Below are positions 3,524 to 39,883 of a stretch of 39,883 nucleotides of DNA, in pieces. Position numbers and translations under genes: made by a program. Under the pieces are notes generated by a model. That model was not told the DNA's origin, did no database searches, and saw only the letters and a list, made by a program, of their open reading frames with translations. Source of the stretch: Escherichia phage SRT7. Numbering within the stretch: the stretch's first letter is position 1; each line of letters starts with the position of its first letter. The stretch is from sequence record NC_048002.1. One strand, given 5' to 3'.

Positions 3524-5359
3524 TTACAGAAGTTCCAGAACCTCCACCTTCTGTACCGGTCCTGCGGTACTCGACTGAAGCATCCTAATTGACGTCTCGG
3601 AAGGAGCATCATACTGCTGGCTCCAGCTACCCATCTGTGTATAGATTCTGATTCCCGGCTCAGGTAGGATTATGCCTACAACACTCTTTAACCCCGTGCC
3701 GGGGATGAAGTGTAGTCGCAGGTGGCGGTTGATAATATTCTCACCAAGGTCAATCTCCCCTTGGGATACTCCAAACGACCCCTCATACAATGTTCGTGGA
3801 GTATATTGGGAGAGTTTCACACGGTTCTCCAGAGAGAGGGTGCGGTTAGTCAGCTCAGTATACACCTGCTCGACTCGTGAAGCTAACACAGCGGCATCCA
3901 CCGAACCCGGATTGTTGACAACACCATGAGTCCTGATAACCCAGACAATCACGATGCCATTCATACGGGCTTCATTAATGTCCTTCTTGTATACGTCGTT
4001 CCACAGTGACGCGTCGAAACCTAACTGAGCACCACTGGTATCGTTAGTTGCACCTTTGTTGGAGCGCCCAGCGTTGTAGAATGCACCAGAGGCACTGGAG
4101 GCCAGCTCATTATCGGCAAGTGCAATCAGACCCTCAATGTTTGGTAGAGCTGACTTCTGAACGTCACCTACAGTAAACCCAGCGTCACCACGGAACACAG
4201 GAGCCTTAATGGAACCCGCATAGACACCGTTGAGGTCAGGTACGCGGAAAGTGGTCGTACCGTTACCTAAGGTATAACAACCACGTTTACCGGGGTCAGA
4301 CAGCCATACGGCGTCAGAGACAACCGGGAGGCGTCCTGCCAGTAACTCAGCTACTAGTGCAGGGAACTGGTTGCGGTTCAGCAGTTGACCGTCCCCATAC
4401 ACTGTACCCGGCTTAGCGTAAGTACGAGAGTTGTGGACCTCAAACTCACCAACCTGACGTACAGCCACTCCGTTAATCCGGTCAACCAGAGTGTTAAACT
4501 GAATTAGCTTATCGGATTCAGTCTTTGCGTTACTTGCAGATGTCGCAGCGTTGCCCTCAGATACAGCGGCCTGTTGAGCAGACGTGTTGGCTGCATCGCG
4601 GTAACCCATAGCGTCGTTGGCGTAACCACCAGCACGGTCAGCCTGTGCCTTAGCGTTCGCTACTTGTGCCTGAGAGTTACCCGCAGAGGTTGCAGACGCA
4701 TTAGCGCTATCCTCAGAGGTCAACGCCCAATGCTTAGCGGAATACTGACTGGAGACCACAGGTGTTCCTTTAGGGTTCTCAGCCCACTTCTGGGCTAACA
4801 GCTCGGAAGCCTTTGAGTTTGTCTCAGAGGTCTTGGCGTTGGTCTCGGACACCTTGGCTTTATTGGCGCTGTCGGCAGCACTACCAGACCAACGGTTCAT
4901 CTGGCCTACGGTAACAACGTCACCAGCGTCCACACCATCTGCCACGTTAACGATACGACGACCACGACCATCAAGGTTGCCATCGTTGTTAACGCCAATG
5001 GTATCAGCGGTCAGGTCTCGCGCTTCTTCAGCAACGTGCAGGGTCTGAATCTGAGATACGTTAAGGTCTGTAGCTCGCAGGATGGAACCATCACTGAAGT
5101 CAACCAGACGTTCACTTGCAGAAGTGTATCGACGAATCTCAATCTGTTGATAGTTATCGGCTGGGCCCCATGCCTTAGTCGTAGATATAAGGTTGCGGGT
5201 AGCGAAGCGATAATCGGTCACAACAACCAGCTCTTTACGGTCTTGACCAATGAGCGTTACCACCACGAACTTACGTGACAGGTACTCAAAGGGAATCGCA
5301 AAGTCAGTCGTGGTGCCATCTAATGGGTACGTATAAACTGTCTTAATGACGTTTGCCAT
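3524..5359 (-). CDS. gp17: Tail fibre protein (T7 gp17-like N-terminus, divergent C-terminal domain)
   Basis: 611 aa; N-terminal ~150 aa closely match T7 gp17; AGGAGG RBS; phi17 promoter upstream. Confidence 0.9.
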   Translation of the reverse strand: MANVIKTVYTYPLDGTTTDFAIPFEYLSRKFVVVTLIGQDRKELVVVTDYRFATRNLISTTKAWGPADNYQQIEIRRYTSASERLVDFSDGSILRATDLNVSQIQTLHVAEEARDLTADTIGVNNDGNLDGRGRRIVNVADGVDAGDVVTVGQMNRWSGSAADSANKAKVSETNAKTSETNSKASELLAQKWAENPKGTPVVSSQYSAKHWALTSEDSANASATSAGNSQAQVANAKAQADRAGGYANDAMGYRDAANTSAQQAAVSEGNAATSASNAKTESDKLIQFNTLVDRINGVAVRQVGEFEVHNSRTYAKPGTVYGDGQLLNRNQFPALVAELLAGRLPVVSDAVWLSDPGKRGCYTLGNGTTTFRVPDLNGVYAGSIKAPVFRGDAGFTVGDVQKSALPNIEGLIALADNELASSASGAFYNAGRSNKGATNDTSGAQLGFDASLWNDVYKKDINEARMNGIVIVWVIRTHGVVNNPGSVDAAVLASRVEQVYTELTNRTLSLENRVKLSQYTPRTLYEGSFGVSQGEIDLGENIINRHLRLHFIPGTGLKSVVGIILPEPGIRIYTQMGSWSQQYDAPSETSIRMLQSSTAGPVQKVEVLELL

Positions 5360-5399
5360 GTGGCCTCCTTATGAAAACTAGAGGGAGGACGTGATTGCC

Positions 5400-5421
5400 T
5401 CTCCCTATAGTGTGGGTTAAT
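5400..5421 (-). promoter_or_regulatory. Phage RNAP promoter (phi17-like)
   Basis: tctccctatagtgtgggttaat on plus strand, i.e. consensus promoter on minus strand. Confidence 0.88.
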
Positions 5422-5423
5422 GA

Positions 5424-8400
5424 TTACCAGCGCTCTGAACGCTTAGGTCGCTCGGTTGTGTAGATGTGCTCTTCGAAAGCACCCAGAAGTAGTCTCTGAG
5501 TAATCGGGTCGTTCGGGAGAACTTCCTTCATATTCTGATAGACACCTGTAGTGAACTCCGTGGAGTCGCGAGGGCCATTGGCACCTCCGAGGTTCCAGAG
5601 GTTCTGACCGAGAGACACCGTAGAGCCAACGTAGTTAGCCACAGGGAACTGTTGACCAATAGCACCCATCAGCTCAGCCGTACCGGAACGACCAGAGGAA
5701 GCCTTGTTAGGGTCTCGCTGTGGTGCATCCTTAGGACTGATAGTGGTACGCATGTACTGACTAGGGGTTAGACCTAATGGGCCAAGTAGCATATCGGCTA
5801 CACCTAATGGCGCACCAGTGATAGAGCTTCGGGAGGCCGCAGCGTAGGTAACCATCTCAGGCGATAAAGCCTTGAAGAGATAGGCCTCACGTTGGTTCTC
5901 AGGAAGACCAGCAGCTTTCATGTGTGACTGCATCACATAGAACGAACCAGCCAACATTCCAGAGATACCAGTAGACAACGCAGCATCCATAGCTCGACCA
6001 TCTCGAGTCGCCTGATAGTAAGTACGTAGGGTCTTACCATTGAGGGACTTAATGACGAACGTCTTAAACTGGAGAGCAGCACCCACAATCGGGCCCAACT
6101 GTTTCACGTTCTGAGCGTTCAGCTTGGAAGGACGAAGCATGGTCTCATCGGCTACCTTGTCAGCCATACGCCACAAGTCCATAGCCCGAGGGTCAAGGCT
6201 CATTGCGTGTTGGTCTGGGAAGCTCCACTTACCGTTAGCGTCCACCTTGGCGTGGTCTTTGAGGAACTGAATGATACCCTTGGACTGCTCAGGCGTGATG
6301 CTGGCAGACTTCAGGAAGTTCTCATTGAGCCACTTGGATGACTTACCAGTCGCAGCGTGTTCAATCAGGTTCCCAATGAGACCCTGACGTGCAGCGCTAA
6401 GCAGGTAGTTCGTGGTGCCTTGTAGCAGCTTACTCATAGGCCACGCAGCGGCAATCTCCTGAGTCCCGAACTTAAGGGAACCCAGAGCGTTTGCACCGAA
6501 TGAACCCATACCAGAGTTGTCACGAAGAGACTGAATGAGGTCTGCCCGTTGAGGGCGAATCATATTGTCCACTTCACGACCCATCAAGCCATACTCCAGC
6601 TTCTGAAGGTCAGTCCCGGAGACAGCCTTAGTGGAACGCATCATGTCACGAACCACAGGGATACCGTGGAACAGAGCACGAACGTTACCCTTGGCAATCA
6701 TACCACCAATCTCCGTCAGGTTCAGAAGACCCATGTAGGCGTTCTTAGCGACAAAGCTCAGGTCTTTAAGAACACCCATAGCCATGTCCACAGCGCCGTT
6801 AGGGTCACGACGAGCACGACCAGTGAGTAACTTCACGGTATCTTCGAGGGCGTTAGCGTCCTGCTTCAGCTTACCGGAAGGGTCACTCTTGGCTCGCTCA
6901 CGGATAGCGGTAATCTTATCCAGCAAGTCCTGAGTAGTCTGACCCGTAGAGTGAATCGCAATGTCACCATTGGTTCGACGGGCATAATTACGCAGCAGCT
7001 TGTTAGCGTCAAAGCTACGAAGGTCATTCAGGGAGAACATCGTACCATCTGGCAGTTGAGACTTGAAGCCCATGCTAAACCCATGACGGCTCTCAAGGAA
7101 GTTGTTCTTCCCGAGGTTCATAGAGTTCGACGCAGAGGCGATATCGTCCAGTGCAAGGTTGGTAGTAAACTCACCATTTACAATACCGAATGCCTTATCA
7201 TTGGCCCACTTCTCAACCATCTCAGGTGTAACTGCGGCTGGGCTATCCAGACCGTTCTTAGCGGCTACCATCTCGTCTACCACAGACTTCGTGTTAGGGT
7301 TGGACGCATAGTCAGCCAAGAAGTGGCGCTGCATGGCACCTTGAGCATCCTCAATGGAGTTCCCAAAGACATTACGGAATGCAGCCACCTTCTCAGGTAC
7401 ATAAGCCACCGGGAAGTATTTGCCGCTAAGTTTCGTCTTGTTCATCACAGGGATTGCTTTAGGGTTACCGAACATCGCAGGGTTAGACATAGCGTCTTCC
7501 TTGCTGGTGGTGAACCGGAAGATTTCATCACGCAGCTTGGATTCACCCTTGGTCAACTTAGAGACGCCAATACCATCTTCCTGTGCTTCCACTGCACGAC
7601 GCACCACGGTCTCACGTGCCAGAGCATCCCCACGGTTAGCGCCCATAGTCCACTCAGGGTCTTTGATTGCATCACGTGTGAACTGCTCAATAGCCGTTAG
7701 GTCGGACGTATCGGTGTAGTGCAGACGCTCAGCCACGTCAGAGGCAACCGTACCGGACTTACCGGAGCCGCCTTTAACGTAACCTGTAGTGGAACGCAGG
7801 AGGTCATAGGCAACACCACGGACTTCATCGTCGGCAGAGCGAGACAGGTGCAGGGAGATATCGGTCATGGAACCCATACGTACACCCATAGAGCCCTTAG
7901 TCACCTCAGGGTCTACCGAAGCAAACTGAGAGGCACTATTAGGGTTCAGAGGGTTACTGGTTGACAGCACTTGACCATCCGGCAGGACTACTTCGCCACT
8001 GTCGAGGGTTGCATATTGAGAGCCATTCGGAGAGGTCTTAAAGTCCAGACCCTCGGTACTCACAGCAGAGTTATCCGGTAGGCCACGCATGGCTGCATCA
8101 CGAGACTCAGCGCGAGCTGTTGCCGCAAGGACGCTCTCAGCTTCACGAGGGTTGGCACGATGTAACACACCAGTCAGGCCAGCACCGAACAGTAAGCCAC
8201 CACCAGCCGCCATCATGTAGTCTGCATGTCCACCACCAACACCCACACGTAAACCTTCAGAGGCTACGTTCAGAGCACCAGCTTGAGTACCTACAGTCAC
8301 CATACGACGACCTAGGGAGATACCCTTGGAAGCCGCACCAGCAATCGGGATGTAGCTCACAGGGTCTACAGCAGCACCAGCGAGAGCACCCACGAGGTGG

Positions 8401-12807: not shown

Positions 12808-12829
12808 TCTCCCTATAGTGTGGGTTAAT
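12808..12829 (-). promoter_or_regulatory. Phage RNAP promoter (phi13-like)
   Basis: Consensus 22-mer on minus strand. Confidence 0.88.
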
Positions 12830-12853
12830 GCACACCACAAGGAGAGCCTATTG

Positions 12854-17241: not shown

Positions 17242-17263
17242 TCTCCCTATAGTGTGGGTTAAT
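17242..17263 (-). promoter_or_regulatory. Phage RNAP promoter (phi10-like)
   Basis: Consensus 22-mer; ~110-nt leader ending AGAAGGAGATTCAACATG. Confidence 0.9.
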
Positions 17264-17268
17264 GCAAA

Positions 17269-18192
17269 TTACCAATGGAAGTTACTTGCAGCAACCTTAG
17301 CGGCTACCTCATTGCGGTACTTTGCGTCTGAGCGGTAGCGGCTATCTGACATCGCCTTGACCATATCTGCCTGTGTCTCGAAGCCTTCTACCTTAGCGGT
17401 AACGGCCTTACTCGGAGTGGCACGAGTGGTCACTGAACGTTCGGCAGGTTTACCGAAACGCTTAGCGCGGGATTGACCCGTAGCATTCAGGAGGGCCTTA
17501 ACGGTTCCCAAATCGCGGCGCATAATGGCCTCTTGGAGAGACTCAAAGCCGTCCGGGTCGTTGGTTTCCATGTGGGTAATCAACTTGTCGAACTGCTCAG
17601 CACCGCCAGCGAGGTCACGAATCTGAGACACGTAGCCCTCAACGAGAGCTTCCTGTCCCTTGATGTAACTGTCAACGAAAGCCTTAGAGTAGCCAGCAGC
17701 AGCCAGTTCCTCATAGGTTGCATCCGTGAGACCATCACCTTGATATTCTTCTTGAATACGCGCAATGGACTCGATAGGCAAACCACGCTCAGCAGCCTGA
17801 TTGACCATCTCTTGGAAGCCCTCTTCGTGCTGACCCAGCAGATCAGATGATTCGACTAGTTCGCTTGGGACTTCACCCAGAGGCGTAAACTCACCGTCTT
17901 CACCATCAGTGCCCTCAGGGGTCTGCTCAGTGCTTTCACCGTCAACGGTGGTCTCACCATTCTCAGCGTTTACTCGAACCTGCATCCGGCTCTCATCTGC
18001 TTCAGAAGCAAACTTATCGCCAGACTGATAGAGGTCTGGTTCGTTCTGGTCAAGCTCAATAGAGTCATCGCCATCACGTACCGCAACGTCCATCTCCAAC
18101 ATGTTCTGTCGGTGCTCCTCAATGTTGTTACTTGACATAACCGCATTGTTAACACCTAATGACGCATAAACGTCAGCATTTGATTCAGCCAT
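17269..18192 (-). CDS. gp9: Capsid assembly (scaffolding) protein (T7 gp9-like)
   Basis: 307 aa, highly acidic; N-terminus MAESNADVYAS matches T7 gp9. Confidence 0.92.
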   Translation of the reverse strand: MAESNADVYASLGVNNAVMSSNNIEEHRQNMLEMDVAVRDGDDSIELDQNEPDLYQSGDKFASEADESRMQVRVNAENGETTVDGESTEQTPEGTDGEDGEFTPLGEVPSELVESSDLLGQHEEGFQEMVNQAAERGLPIESIARIQEEYQGDGLTDATYEELAAAGYSKAFVDSYIKGQEALVEGYVSQIRDLAGGAEQFDKLITHMETNDPDGFESLQEAIMRRDLGTVKALLNATGQSRAKRFGKPAERSVTTRATPSKAVTAKVEGFETQADMVKAMSDSRYRSDAKYRNEVAAKVAASNFHW

Positions 18193-18271: not shown

Positions 18272-18293
18272 TCTCCCTATAGTGTGGGTTAAT
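18272..18293 (-). promoter_or_regulatory. Phage RNAP promoter (phi9-like)
   Basis: Consensus 22-mer on minus strand. Confidence 0.88.
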
Positions 18294-18301
18294 GCAATTT
18301 G

Positions 18302-20803: not shown

Positions 20804-20825
20804 TCTCCCTATAGTGTGGGTTAAT
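20804..20825 (-). promoter_or_regulatory. Phage RNAP promoter (phi6.5-like)
   Basis: Consensus 22-mer on minus strand. Confidence 0.88.
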
Positions 20826-20846
20826 ACACAAAGACCCTATAATCAG

Positions 20847-20963
20847 TTACTTAGGCTCGGTCAGCCATTTGTACGCTAACCAGCTTGCAGACCACAGGCA
20901 CTTAGCTAAGCCACCCATGAAAATCAGAATGCTGACGTACTTGAGGATGATGGTGGGTTCCAT
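20847..20963 (-). CDS. Small hydrophobic peptide (38 aa) at gene 6.3 position
   Basis: Hand translation MEPTIILKYVSILIFMGGLAKCLWSASWLAYKWLTEPK; AAGGAG RBS; overlaps 3' end of gene 6 in another frame. Confidence 0.4.
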   Translation of the reverse strand: MEPTIILKYVSILIFMGGLAKCLWSASWLAYKWLTEPK

Positions 20964-21853
20964 AAGTAAATCTCCTTGTCAATAAAGTTATACTCTTCGA
21001 ATCGCAAGATGCGAGCCATACGCGCCTGAGCGATTACACCATCTTCATCCATACCAGCCTTAGCTGCGATGCTTACAATGCACTCCCACAAACTCCGACC
21101 ATCTGGGTCCGACTTGACCCACTTAGTCACCTCCTGTCCTTTGTTCTTGCCGGACTTAAGGATAGACGTTACGGGTTCCGTGAAGAACGGTTCATTCAGG
21201 AACTCTTCAGCCGTATCGCCCCATCCCGGAATCCCACCGTAACCATCAGTAATATCGCCCTTGATGGTCTGATAGAGGTGCCAGAAGTCGGCAGACTTAA
21301 GGTCCTGCACGAGGATGTTACCAGTCGTACACCACAGGAAGTCCACGTTAGGTATGGTCTTAAAGTCCTTGTCACAGGAGACCAATACAGCCTTATCGAA
21401 GCCAAACTCGGAGTGACCTGAACCAAGTATACCCATAACGTCATCACCTTCTAGTTTGTCCTCTCGGATGCATATATAGTCAGGGTTATTGAATAACGCT
21501 TCGAGGAACTCAAAGTAACCTACAGGTTTCTTCGTGGCCTTTCGGTTGGACTTGTAGTTCTCGTCAACGAGGACCTTACGCCAGTTGATTGAGTCAGTGA
21601 ACGCAAGGACAATCTTGGCAGTTGCCCAGCCTTTCTTACGGGTACGATAGGTCTCGATAGAGCTGAACAGGAACTCACGAGCCTTGGCGTGGTCACAACA
21701 ACGCTGCCAAATCTCCTCTTCCCACGAAGCGTCGAACTCAGCCGCAGACATAGCTTGGAACACCAGCCAGTCACCATCCATGACCAGTAGTCCCTTCTCT
21801 CGTGGCTGAGTCTTTCGGTAGTCGTAGAAGTCCTTAAGTGTCATTAAGCTCAT
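20924..21853 (-). CDS. gp6: 5'-3' exonuclease (T7 gp6-like)
   Basis: 309 aa; GLLVMDGDWLVFQAMSAAEFDASWEEEIW and C-terminal blocks match T7 gp6. Confidence 0.93.
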   Translation of the reverse strand: MSLMTLKDFYDYRKTQPREKGLLVMDGDWLVFQAMSAAEFDASWEEEIWQRCCDHAKAREFLFSSIETYRTRKKGWATAKIVLAFTDSINWRKVLVDENYKSNRKATKKPVGYFEFLEALFNNPDYICIREDKLEGDDVMGILGSGHSEFGFDKAVLVSCDKDFKTIPNVDFLWCTTGNILVQDLKSADFWHLYQTIKGDITDGYGGIPGWGDTAEEFLNEPFFTEPVTSILKSGKNKGQEVTKWVKSDPDGRSLWECIVSIAAKAGMDEDGVIAQARMARILRFEEYNFIDKEIYLWNPPSSSSTSAF

Positions 21854-22242
21854 GAAAGCTCCTTAGCGGTGCTCATGGCAACCGGAACGATATCTAGCAG
21901 CTTGCGCTCAGGGTCGAGAGTTGGGCCAGCAGCGTGAACCCAAGTGGTCACAACGCGAGTCTCACGGCGTTCTTCGAGAACGTTAATCTCTTCACCGTAG
22001 GTCTCGAACCCATCGTATGCGGTAGTATAACCATCAATGGTCAGACGCTTACCGACATACATCGCCAGAACCACAGCCAGCTCGCGGTCGTCGTCCAGCT
22101 CATCTTCGGCTCGCTCAGCGGTCACGTCAAGGAACATCGTAGCGTCCACCATATCGTGCTTCAGGCGACCACCTTCCTCGCACTCACCACACTCCATGAT
22201 GTAGTGCCACAGGGACAAGTTGTCTTTCTTAGTGAGAATCAT
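21850..22242 (-). CDS. Hypothetical protein (130 aa) at the gene 5.9 locus
   Basis: ATG at 22242 with GGAGG RBS; ATGA overlaps with gp5.7 stop and gp6 start; no resemblance to recalled 52-aa T7 gp5.9. Confidence 0.7.
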   Translation of the reverse strand: MILTKKDNLSLWHYIMECGECEEGGRLKHDMVDATMFLDVTAERAEDELDDDRELAVVLAMYVGKRLTIDGYTTAYDGFETYGEEINVLEERRETRVVTTWVHAAGPTLDPERKLLDIVPVAMSTAKELS

Positions 22243-22448
22243 ACACAACCTCCGTTAGCTTTCAGGAACTTAACACCAGACGCAGTGATTTCCCACGCGC
22301 CACCATTACGTCCACTCGCAGTCAAACACGAAAGGTGGCCCCGAGAGGCCGCCTCCGCTACCAGTGCCATGTTGTTACGCACATAGTTTGACTGAAAGGA
22401 CTTAGGGCACTGCTTGATTGCAGCCAGTACTTTCAGATAGTCAGACAT
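22239..22448 (-). CDS. gp5.7: T7 gp5.7-like protein
   Basis: 69 aa; MSDYLKVLAAIKQCPKSFQSNYVRNN...GRNGGAWEITASG nearly identical to T7 gp5.7. Confidence 0.9.
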   Translation of the reverse strand: MSDYLKVLAAIKQCPKSFQSNYVRNNMALVAEAASRGHLSCLTASGRNGGAWEITASGVKFLKANGGCV

Positions 22449-22744
22449 TATTTCACCACCCGTACAGTTGCTGGTGATGCTTTGAAGAGACGCTTATCGC
22501 CAATCTCTTCGAACATCTCCTTGACACCCTCACGGATGGACTTACGGATAATGAACGCTACCGCACCGTCCGGGCCACCAGTTAACGCCTGAACCAGAAG
22601 TTCCTTATTGGTGTGGTCAACGTCCTCTCGTGCCGCTACCTGTTTGGCGATGCGCTGAATGGTCTCTTTGAGTTGTTCCTCTTCAACTGAACCCAGCTTC
22701 ACGGTTACGTCGAATGATACTTTGAATTTCTTAGTGATAGCCAT
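22448..22744 (-). CDS. gp5.5: T7 gp5.5-like protein
   Basis: Start at ATG 22744 (MAITKKFKVSFDV..., 98 aa) with GAGGAGA RBS; matches T7 gp5.5; stop overlaps gp5.7 start as TAATG. Confidence 0.85.
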   Translation of the reverse strand: MAITKKFKVSFDVTVKLGSVEEEQLKETIQRIAKQVAAREDVDHTNKELLVQALTGGPDGAVAFIIRKSIREGVKEMFEEIGDKRLFKASPATVRVVK

Positions 22745-22907
22745 GTTGTTTCTCCTCTGTCGGTTCTTCATGTAATTTAAGGTTCTCCCGCACGTCTTTC
22801 GCACAGGAGCCTGATAAGTTCGGACAATAGTTACTGGTCCCATGACCGTCCCACCACGATTGTTTCATCAGGTCTATAACTTCTTGTCTCGTAAAGTTCT
22901 GCTTCAT
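22731..22907 (-). CDS. Hypothetical small protein (58 aa) at gene 5.3 position
   Basis: ATG at 22907, 10 nt after DNA polymerase stop; overlaps gp5.5 start by 14 nt. Confidence 0.5.
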   Translation of the reverse strand: MKQNFTRQEVIDLMKQSWWDGHGTSNYCPNLSGSCAKDVRENLKLHEEPTEEKQHGYH

Positions 22908-26164: not shown

Positions 26165-26186
26165 GTTCCCTATAGTGTGGGTTAAT
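26165..26186 (-). promoter_or_regulatory. Phage RNAP promoter (phi4.3-like; GGGAAC initiating variant)
   Basis: Minus ATTAACCCACACTATAGGGAAC. Confidence 0.8.
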
Positions 26187-26263
26187 GTCGTGAAGGACAG
26201 ACACAAGGTCTATCCCAAGGGCAGTTGCATTGTGTGGTCAGCTTCCAGTCAGGTTCTAGTTGA

Positions 26264-30018: not shown

Positions 30019-30040
30019 TGTCCCTATAGTGTGGGTTATT
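30019..30040 (-). promoter_or_regulatory. Phage RNAP promoter (phi2.5-like; variant -17..-13 and GGGACA)
   Basis: Minus TAATAACCCACACTATAGGGACA; overlaps 3' end of gene 2. Confidence 0.75.
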
Positions 30041-30221
30041 AGACGGCTGGACGAACTCGGAGCACCTCAAAGCCTACCGGAGTATACTTAAAGGTTGCCA
30101 AATCGTGTGCCTCTTCGAGAGACCCTGCGAATACAGGCACCTCCAGCTCGCCATCAACGTAACTGAGCGTCACGAAGTACTTCTTATCGGTTGGGACGAG
30201 GCGTCCCTTCTCAATGGTCAT
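30039..30221 (-). CDS. gp2: Host RNA polymerase inhibitor (T7 gp2-like)
   Basis: Start at ATG 30221 (MTIEKGR..., 60 aa) with AAGGAGAAAGG RBS; C-terminus VGFEVLRVRP resembles T7 gp2. Confidence 0.75.
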   Translation of the reverse strand: MTIEKGRLVPTDKKYFVTLSYVDGELEVPVFAGSLEEAHDLATFKYTPVGFEVLRVRPAV

Positions 30222-31157: not shown

Positions 31158-31179
31158 TCTCCCTATAGTGTGGGTTAAT
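31158..31179 (-). promoter_or_regulatory. Phage RNAP promoter (phi1.5-like)
   Basis: Consensus 22-mer on minus strand. Confidence 0.88.
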
Positions 31180-31182
31180 AGG

Positions 31183-31296
31183 CTAGTCATCTAGTGGGCA
31201 GTAGTCGGACAGTTTGTCTTTAGCCCACTTGTGGCCTACCCAAAGTCCAAATATGAATACCAGCACGAGGCTGAGCGAGATTTCTAAAGGTGTCAT
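31183..31296 (-). CDS. Small membrane-type protein (37 aa) at gene 1.4 position, speculative
   Basis: MTPLEISLSLVLVFIFGLWVGHKWAKDKLSDYCPLDD; AAGGATT RBS. Confidence 0.45.
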   Translation of the reverse strand: MTPLEISLSLVLVFIFGLWVGHKWAKDKLSDYCPLDD

Positions 31297-32882: not shown

Positions 32883-32904
32883 TCTCCCTATAGTGTGGGT
32901 TAAT
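32883..32904 (-). promoter_or_regulatory. Phage RNAP promoter (phi1.1B-like)
   Basis: Consensus 22-mer; transcript 5' end can form GGGAGA-loop-UCUCCC hairpin. Confidence 0.88.
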
Positions 32905-32908
32905 ATAC

Positions 32909-33281: not shown

Positions 33282-33303
33282 GTTCCCTATAGTGTGGGTT
33301 AAT
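33282..33303 (-). promoter_or_regulatory. Phage RNAP promoter (phi1.1A-like; GGGAAC variant)
   Basis: Minus ATTAACCCACACTATAGGGAAC. Confidence 0.8.
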
Positions 33304-33348
33304 GATAAGACCCTGAAGATTCAAGGCCTTAGGTATTAACCGACGCTG

Positions 33349-38312: not shown

Positions 38313-38765
38313 TTAGATTACCTCCCAGATACGCCCTTCAGCGTCCATTGTGTAGCACTCACCCTCAGGTGCATCCACTTGCTGGAAGGAGCCATTCAGT
38401 CGAGTCGCCTTGTACCCCTCCAGACCCTTACAGAACAGTAGACCAGCGGTGTGAGTCTGTGACTTATAAACCATCACACAGTCTTGCTCAAAGTCATTAC
38501 AGGCCAAACGTGCCACGTTGATAGCTTGCGCCTTGTTGTCACACAATACACGATAGGTGCGCTCGGTGGTAGCGACCTCCTGACCCTCTTCACGATAGCA
38601 GCCAGTCAGACCAGTACACTCAAGGACACCGTAATATTCCGGCTCAGCCTGTAAGAGCGCCTTAAGGTCCAGTTGACGTGCCATGTTGACCATATCGGAC
38701 AGGTTAGCACGTGCAGCGGAGACCAGTACATAGAATTTGTTAGCTGGTTCGTTCGTGTAAATCAT
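38313..38765 (-). CDS. gp0.3: S-adenosyl-L-methionine hydrolase/lyase (T3 gp0.3-like SAMase, anti-restriction)
   Basis: 150 aa; EPAN.FYVLVSA...DLTGCYRE...KAQA.NVARLACN..EQDC..VYKSQTHTAGL matches recalled T3 SAMase; first gene after early promoters. Confidence 0.85.
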   Translation of the reverse strand: MIYTNEPANKFYVLVSAARANLSDMVNMARQLDLKALLQAEPEYYGVLECTGLTGCYREEGQEVATTERTYRVLCDNKAQAINVARLACNDFEQDCVMVYKSQTHTAGLLFCKGLEGYKATRLNGSFQQVDAPEGECYTMDAEGRIWEVI

Positions 38766-39384: not shown

Positions 39385-39406
39385 GCTCCTTATAGTGTGG
39401 GTTAAT
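39385..39406 (-). promoter_or_regulatory. Phage RNAP promoter (phiOL-like; AAGGAGC initiating variant)
   Basis: Minus ATTAACCCACACTATAAGGAGC, ~300 bp inside the left terminal repeat. Confidence 0.7.
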
Positions 39407-39708
39407 AGGCCGTGATAATAGCTATTGACTCTTTGGTCTCTTTAAGTTACCTTATAAGCGTACCACAGATAGACCGCTCTTTAACAATCTGACCAGTAGC
39501 ACCAGCATCACAGCAAAGATGCGACCAATAAGCCCTGAGAGCCTAGCTAATCACCTCTCTGATAAACTGATAGCAAACCATAAGCCATGAGACTGACGGT
39601 CTCTGATAAGCGTCACAGCGCTACTGAGAGTAAACCAAAGGATGGGCACCGACCAAAGGTGATGACCTGAGGTGACATTGAGTGATGACCTTATGATGTC
39701 CAACAGAT

Positions 39709-39883
39709 AGGGACTGAGGCATAACCAAATGTCACCAAAGGTCTCCCAAATGTCACCAAATGTCTCACCGCACCACCTCAGGAGAACCAAAGGTGAACTG
39801 AAAGAGGAACCAAAGGGGAAAGGGACACCAAAGGTGAACTGAAAGAGGCCTATGGGGGAACTTTGGGAGTTGTATCTTTGAGA
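39709..39883. repeat. Direct terminal repeat, 175 bp, identical to 1-175 (phage left-end copy)
   Basis: Exact match to the first 175 nt of the window. Confidence 0.95.

Follow-up and report, generated by a model that had tools for sequence, protein, structure and literature searches.

Bacteriophage T7 encodes a small inhibitor of RecBCD, gp5.9, which adopts a parallel coiled coil (PMC9836394) and for which a second target, MukBEF, has been described (PMC7617805). Gam and gp5.9, both known RecBCD inhibitors, have been described as small acidic DNA mimics (PMC9836394), and gp5.9, in standard use as a tool, triggers or modulates several bacterial defences, as reported for retron Ec48 (PMC9836394) and for the Druantia-Zorya synergy (PMC13192584). 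In T7 this protein of 52 amino acids (aa) is encoded between gene 5.7 and gene 6; it belongs to PHROG 9014, and the T3-type gp5.9 to PHROG 4790. The present analysis concerns the gene found in exactly the same position in Escherichia phage SRT7 (NC_048002.1), whose complete T7-like genome of 39,883 bp, in reverse orientation and with all genes on the minus strand, is the window analysed here. The open reading frame (ORF) in this position encodes 130 aa and is a genuine gene, its product is not a gp5.9 homolog, and sequence comparison places it in an acidic superfamily found only in phages.

The 130-aa ORF is an accessory gene that is coupled translationally between gene 5.7 and gene 6. An earlier note, written from the letters of this DNA, had described, with no mention of the strand, an ORF of this length with a GGAGG ribosome-binding site and an ATGA overlap on either side, and all of these features were recovered on the minus-strand read (Table 1). 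That read has ...aacGGAGGttgtgtATGAttctc... (also given as ...GGAGGttgtgtATGA...) at the 5' end of the ORF and ...gctaAGGAGctttcATGAgctta... (also given as ...AGGAGctttcATGA...) at its 3' end. An alternative TTG start two codons upstream of the ATG abuts the ribosome-binding site and is used neither in GenBank nor in any homolog. Since the order 5.5-5.7-ORF-6 and the identical 4-nucleotide (nt) overlaps recur in three metagenomic homolog loci (L010-L012), the coupling arrangement is conserved and the ORF is not a product of chance. It is under purifying selection, with pairwise dN/dS (ratio of nonsynonymous to synonymous substitution rates) of 0.12-0.36 among five homologous coding sequences, and a 150-aa antisense ORF (21934..22386, plus strand), which lies opposite to this selected gene, is taken as spurious. 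A search of Rfam gave a single match, at E 0.16 and outside the ORF, with none below E 0.1, and sigma-70 promoter-like and terminator-like sites were at or below the expectation from shuffled sequence.

When Escherichia phage KKE5P (Teseptimavirus) is aligned with T7, a cassette with the 130-aa gene directly replaces gp5.9 between T7-like flanks. Identity is 79% in the 5.5-5.7 region and 92-94% in gene 6 from 24 nt in, and a stretch of 172 nt in T7, with gp5.9 in it, has given way to 616 nt holding a 68-aa phrog_2251 gene and the 130-aa gene. Between the window and KKE5P the ORF has about 94% nt identity, against 67-76% for most other aligned segments, which indicates that the gene moved as a cassette between genera. 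The phrog_2251 gene, which travels with the 130-aa gene in KKE5P, belongs to a family also found in the 5.7-6 slot of Klebsiella and Kayfunavirus phages (the stretches concerned, KKE5P included, being L004 2798-3004, 68 aa; L015 1507-1710; and L017 1507-1725). A second mosaic segment shared by the window and KKE5P, at 86.5% nt identity, lies in the tail-fibre gene (PF03906; 3524-5359, minus strand), especially at 3852-5412.

The 5.7-6 interval is an accessory site whose content varies. In addition to the 52-aa gp5.9 of T7, it holds a T3-type gp5.9 in Citrobacter phage SH1, two small ORFs of 67 aa and 58 aa in Klebsiella phage 2146-HW, a 72-aa phrog_2251 ORF in Peacock and an unrelated 120-aa ORF in the Dickeya phage Ninurta. 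The SH1 protein annotated as 'host RecBCD nuclease inhibitor' (L014 1453-1689) begins, as annotated, within gene 5.7 and out of its frame; the first 20-29 residues or so correspond to the gene 5.7 3' end of several phages, and the true start is probably an internal Met that would leave about 60 aa. Matches of this protein in the window at 22296-22210 stem from the mis-called N-terminus, as an out-of-frame read of gene 5.7, and were discarded. The Ninurta ORF (L018 1632-1994) has a Cys-rich N-terminal stretch and matches phrog_18166 and phrog_2294, the latter labelled 'ribonucleotide reductase', a hint of a nucleotide-metabolism theme at the locus.

Within the PHROG collection the 130-aa protein matched only phrog_19215 (E 1.5e-12, residues 8-91) and, marginally, phrog_4382 (E 1.3e-3), and phrog_19215 was also matched by 13 of 13 aligned relatives. 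These matches place it in a phage-only, uniformly acidic superfamily (PHROG 19215/4382), with which it shares acidity and core motifs: the protein has the superfamily motif G-x-R/H-x-K-H/Y, the turn at G71, the acidic composition and a length within 100-150 aa. The window-type subfamily has a conserved C-terminal tail of its own, unlike the T4-like, Kayfunavirus and Suspvirus branches. All relatives found in an exhaustive hidden Markov model (HMM) search and two indexed searches are small stand-alone proteins, none of them fused to another domain and none with a Pfam domain or an informative name, and every superfamily match that could be placed lies in a phage-like context. Searches of Pfam, NCBIfam, PADLOC and the PDB (by sequence and profile) with the 130-aa protein were empty. 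The window-type subfamily is rare, occurring in two of 50,697 phage records and forming 10 clusters at 90% identity in 5.8 billion proteins (11 by profile search); with distant relatives counted, seven clusters at 50% identity were found among 1.84 billion representatives.

Several members occupy the same slot as in SRT7. Dickeya phage Mysterion has a 128-aa member there, and the Kayfunavirus phages Pipis, LET1 and R1 a 149-aa member (E 1e-23 against Mysterion, about E 4e-11 with the family HMM), the genera with slot members being Foetvirus, Aarhusvirus and Kayfunavirus. A tblastn search with the 149-aa Kayfunavirus protein returned 174 records, including many Klebsiella phages (about 40 kb) and Ounavirinae-type phages (about 88-90 kb), and some of the Klebsiella phages probably also carry a superfamily member between genes 5.7 and 6. 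The SRT7 protein itself is 100% identical to ZD95_27 of Escherichia phage P1723 (Foetvirus SRT7, MT465573; QKM75956.1; L001 4001-4393). The gene has been deposited already, listed as hypothetical, and is an additional member of a known, uncharacterised superfamily whose PHROG families bear no functional annotation, and a literature search found no study of the 130-aa protein, of gene function in SRT7 or P1723, or of the Kayfunavirus slot gene. The name given to the P1723 protein in GenBank, 'putative sugar ABC transporter substrate-binding protein', appears to be a mistaken annotation that might spread further; all other sources give hypothetical or uncharacterised. A further label, 'dGTPase inhibitor', which lies over a homolog in Shigella phage ESh23 (L030, ON528733, UNVERIFIED), was set aside as its features are on the strand opposite to the match. 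The ESh23 features in the fetched stretch are all tagged 'nonfunctional', and the annotation coordinates are taken to be mirrored relative to the sequence.

The earlier note had pointed to the 52-aa gene in this position of T7 and had seen no resemblance between it and the ORF; both statements hold, the second by tblastn, HMM and BLASTP alike. The best tblastn match of T7 gp5.9 in the window had E 3.4, queries of the T7 and T3 types found no gp5.9 in the window, the whole KKE5P genome or the loci fetched up to that search, the family HMM scored gp5.9 at noise level, and BLASTP likewise gave no match to the ORF. No gp5.9 lies beside a family member in any T7-like slot examined (Mysterion, Pipis, LET1, R1, L010-L012 and L023). 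An apparent bridge through phrog_6163 was rejected, the Mysterion-type tails matching positions 3-29 of that profile and the C-terminal half of T3-type gp5.9 positions 29-66; homology between tails and gp5.9 was also rejected, as a direct profile comparison of these tails with gp5.9 (hhalign) gave a probability of 0.09%. The two proteins have in common the 5.7-6 slot, small size, strong acidity (computed isoelectric point, pI, 4.08 for gp5.9 and 4.48 for the 130-aa protein) and the adjoining gp5.5 and gp5.7 genes. They differ in length and show no sequence or profile similarity, and the all-helical parallel coiled-coil dimer of gp5.9 contrasts with the six strands, three helices and tail predicted for the 130-aa protein. 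Thus the 130-aa protein is not a gp5.9 homolog. The earlier note had spoken of a divergent or functionally replaced gene: the lack of similarity and the predicted alpha/beta fold dispose of a divergent gp5.9, and functional replacement is plausible on grounds of position, in the KKE5P cassette that takes the place of gp5.9, and of charge only.

The protein has a pI of 4.48, a net charge of -14 and an Asp+Glu content of 21.5%, so that 'moderately acidic', as it had been called, is right as to acidity and understates its degree. Among about 44 crudely called coding-strand ORFs of the genome its negative charge density ranks at the top, tied with a 307-aa ORF (17269-18192), and all superfamily members checked are acidic (net charge -7 to -18) despite identities down to 17-30%. 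Judged from composition, the protein may act by DNA mimicry, like lambda Gam, Ocr and gp5.9, with which it has in common that it is small, strongly acidic and phage-encoded; its model bears no structural resemblance to any solved mimic. Ocr is an acidic DNA mimic in character and has no counterpart in this genome's anti-restriction solution, which is of the T3 type: a 150-aa ORF near the early end (38316-38765, minus strand), taken to occupy the gene 0.3 position, encodes an S-adenosylmethionine lyase (PF23780, E 2e-40). With this lyase in place of Ocr, the 130-aa protein is by charge among the most DNA-mimic-like proteins of the genome.

Structure prediction with AlphaFold (AF2) gave a mean predicted local distance difference test (pLDDT) score of 82.4 from each of two independent alignments, with block means of 83-95 over residues 1-100. 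The confidently predicted alpha/beta domain contains the family motifs EGGR-L-KHD and GYTTxYDGFE and the acidic segment AEDELDDDRE. Comparison of the model with solved structures gave no significant match and recovered no solved DNA mimic, anti-defence protein, enzyme or sponge, and its structural neighbours in BFVD are all uncharacterised phage proteins. The profile and structure searches that the earlier note had proposed brought up phrog_19215/4382 and no characterised housekeeping homolog.

The initiator Met apart, K28 and G71 are the sole positions invariant throughout the superfamily, G19 is nearly so, and H29 is replaced by Y in the Kayfunavirus and Suspvirus clade, a conservation pattern that suits a binding scaffold better than an enzyme. 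The CGEC motif noted near the N-terminus is present at residues 18-21 and is not characteristic of the family: CGKV stands in its place in two close homologs, and distant homologs lack Cys there. A zinc-binding CxxC site was rejected on the same grounds, as the protein has just two Cys, V takes the place of C21 in homologs P0006 and P0008, and in distant homologs neither position is constant. In close homologs the 30 residues at the C-terminus are conserved as well as the core, and distant clades have other tails. Some of this conservation is at the level of nucleotides: among window-type homologs the proportional synonymous divergence amounts to 0.32 for the tail and 0.50 for the core, and the final 45 nt or so of the ORF (21853-21900, minus strand) are nearly invariant in DNA, synonymous sites included. 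This probably reflects the translation-initiation region of gene 6 or a recombination joint, or possibly an RNA element.

We tentatively favour the reading that the 130-aa protein inhibits a host enzyme of DNA processing or defence, to which we give somewhat less than an even chance. It is suggested by the acidity, the lack of a conserved catalytic constellation, the neighbouring gp5.5 and gp5.7 and, in other phages, gp5.9 itself, and the mobility of the cassette. Such a protein would bind a host DNA-handling enzyme stoichiometrically, competing electrostatically for its basic DNA-binding surface, and would shield the linear phage DNA during replication, when both DNA polymerase and the gene 6 exonuclease are at work. 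By analogy with gp5.9, RecBCD would be the leading candidate for the target, a speculative assignment that we rate as rather unlikely. A number of observations weigh against the favoured reading. Berlinvirus A7 and Pseudomonas phage Maksa have nothing in the slot, and elsewhere it is occupied by at least four further families of unrelated small proteins. T7-type gp5.9 was found in 187 of 1281 gp5.7-bearing phage records (a T3-type query found 231 records), so that among them the lack of T7-type gp5.9 is the norm, and position in the slot is a weak indicator of function. Members also occur in quite different surroundings: between nudE and the endolysin gene in the T4-like Bragavirus and Gualtarvirus, between the genes for DHFR and thymidylate synthase, upstream of DNA polymerase A, and between nrdD and nrdG in the Suspvirus (Ounavirinae) phiSUSP1. 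The distant members that adjoin enzyme genes are L022 3501-3884, L029 2968-3360, L003 3001-3444 and L025 158-466; their adjacency may be meaningful or may simply mark where small early ORFs accumulate.

A counter-defence or host-takeover inhibitor could have a target other than RecBCD, for instance a different defence nuclease, MukBEF or another structural maintenance of chromosomes (SMC) complex, a nucleoid factor or a transcription factor, and we regard this as possible though rather unlikely. The variability of the slot, with its several unrelated families, fits such a target, as do the second, unrelated gene in the KKE5P cassette and the mobility of that cassette between genera; acidity would suit any DNA- or RNA-binding target, tails that differ between clades could reflect different targets or host versions, and gp5.9 itself also hits MukBEF (PMC7617805). 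However, neither PADLOC, Pfam and NCBIfam nor the comparison with solved anti-defence structures gave a match, and no particular target is indicated. We consider it distinctly unlikely that the protein has an accessory part in the phage's metabolism of nucleotides or DNA precursors, either as a partner of the downstream enzyme or as a T7 gp1.2-like inhibitor of a host enzyme degrading deoxynucleoside triphosphates. Members abut or overlap enzyme genes in four unrelated backbones (gene 6 exonuclease, DHFR/thymidylate synthase, NrdD/NrdG and NudE), and one more lies upstream of DNA polymerase A, but the partner differs each time, hence there is no single cognate enzyme, and early regions collect small accessory ORFs in any case. 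Nor is the gene tied to one exonuclease allele, gene 6 of KKE5P being of T7 type (92-94%) and that of the window about 74% identical to it.

A catalytic or ligand-binding role, as a small enzyme or a nucleotide-signal sponge acting through K28, H29/D30, Y76 and E80, appears very improbable. The K-H-D and G-Y-T-T-x-Y-D-G-F-E motifs are strongly conserved in the PHROG 19215-type branch, and known sponge proteins are similar in size, but superfamily-wide invariance is confined to K28 and G71, with Y for H29 in the Kayfunavirus/Suspvirus clade, a net charge of -14 disfavours anionic nucleotides, and no solved enzyme or sponge matches the model. A highly diverged true gp5.9 homolog, for which the shared slot and acidity and the transient phrog_6163 lead might speak, is effectively refuted by the matches to different parts of that profile, the hhalign result, the HMM scores at noise level, a length 2.5 times that of gp5.9 and the different predicted fold. 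The sugar ABC-transporter assignment has the product name of QKM75956.1 as its sole source and is refuted by domain searches, which gave no Pfam or NCBIfam domain at E up to 1 or 10; the context is one of phage DNA metabolism, and substrate-binding proteins have a few hundred residues, so that 130 aa is too small.

Returning to the favoured host-enzyme inhibitor, the superfamily could represent a new structural class, in which an acidic alpha/beta domain blocks RecBCD or another machine acting on DNA ends or DNA loops, a proposal that we think unlikely at present. If true, it would be a third, independently evolved solution beside Gam and gp5.9, spread in virulent Enterobacterales phages (T7-like, T4-like and Ounavirinae), with clade-specific tails tuning target or host specificity. 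One recurrent occupant of the slot is a coherent, uniformly acidic and structurally orphan superfamily, and the 130-aa gene has been swapped naturally for gp5.9. Were RecBCD inhibited, the protein would add a fold to those known for its inhibitors and could serve to probe the defences that guard RecBCD; were it not, it would point to another host target at the same stage of infection.

Table 1. Coordinates of the 130-aa ORF, its parts, its neighbours and the promoter-like repeats in the window.
Feature	Position	Strand	Remarks
130-aa ORF	22242..21850	minus	ATG 22242..22240, TGA 21852..21850; PHROG 19215/4382 superfamily, acidic
Ribosome-binding site GGAGG	22253..22249	minus	6-nt spacer to ORF ATG; inside 3' end of gene 5.7
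ATGA overlap, gp5.7 stop/ORF start	22242..22239	minus	Translational coupling; geometry as in L010-L012
ATGA overlap, ORF stop/gene 6 start	21850..21853	minus	Gene 6 ATG 21853..21851; AGGAG 6 nt upstream, within ORF
Predicted alpha/beta domain, codons 1-95	21958..22242	minus	b1-a1-b2-b3-a2-a3-b4-b5-b6 (b, strand; a, helix)
C-terminal tail, codons 96-130	21853..21957	minus	Confidence falls; pLDDT <50 from about residue 113-119
Gene 5.7 homolog, 69 aa (upstream neighbour)	22239..22448	minus	phrog_1334, E 4.7e-38
Gene 5.5 homolog (H-NS-binding family)	22448..22747	minus	PF11247, phrog_1452; likely start Met33
Gene 6 5'-3' exonuclease, 309 aa (downstream neighbour)	20924..21853	minus	phrog_107, E 3.6e-77; PF02739
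Nearest promoter-like copy upstream of ORF	26166..26190	minus	ATTAACCCACACTATAGGGAA
Next promoter-like copy, downstream of gene 6	20805..20829	minus	
Other promoter-like copies	567-591, 5401-5425, 12809-12833, 17243-17267, 18273-18297	minus	
Other promoter-like copies (continued)	30020-30044, 31159-31183, 32884-32908, 33283-33307, 39386-39410	minus	

The window contains 12 copies of a repeat with the minus-strand form ATTAACCCACACTATAGGGAG, which we take to be a promoter of the phage RNA polymerase as it resembles the T3/T7 consensus, that of T3 more closely than that of T7. Because the nearest copies lie upstream at 26166-26190 and, beyond gene 6, at 20805-20829, the ORF would be co-transcribed with the DNA-metabolism genes and would belong to the middle (class II) transcription unit. 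The DNA polymerase gene lies further upstream of the block formed by gp5.5, gp5.7 and the ORF, and gp5.7 is an inhibitor of a host sigma factor. At the genome ends there is an exact terminal direct repeat of 175 bp (1-175 = 39709-39883). The gp5.5 ORF as called mechanically (22448-22843, minus strand) has 131 aa, of which PF11247 covers residues 34-130, and its first 32 codons are probably not translated; the gp5.5 annotation of P1723 has 99 codons including the stop.

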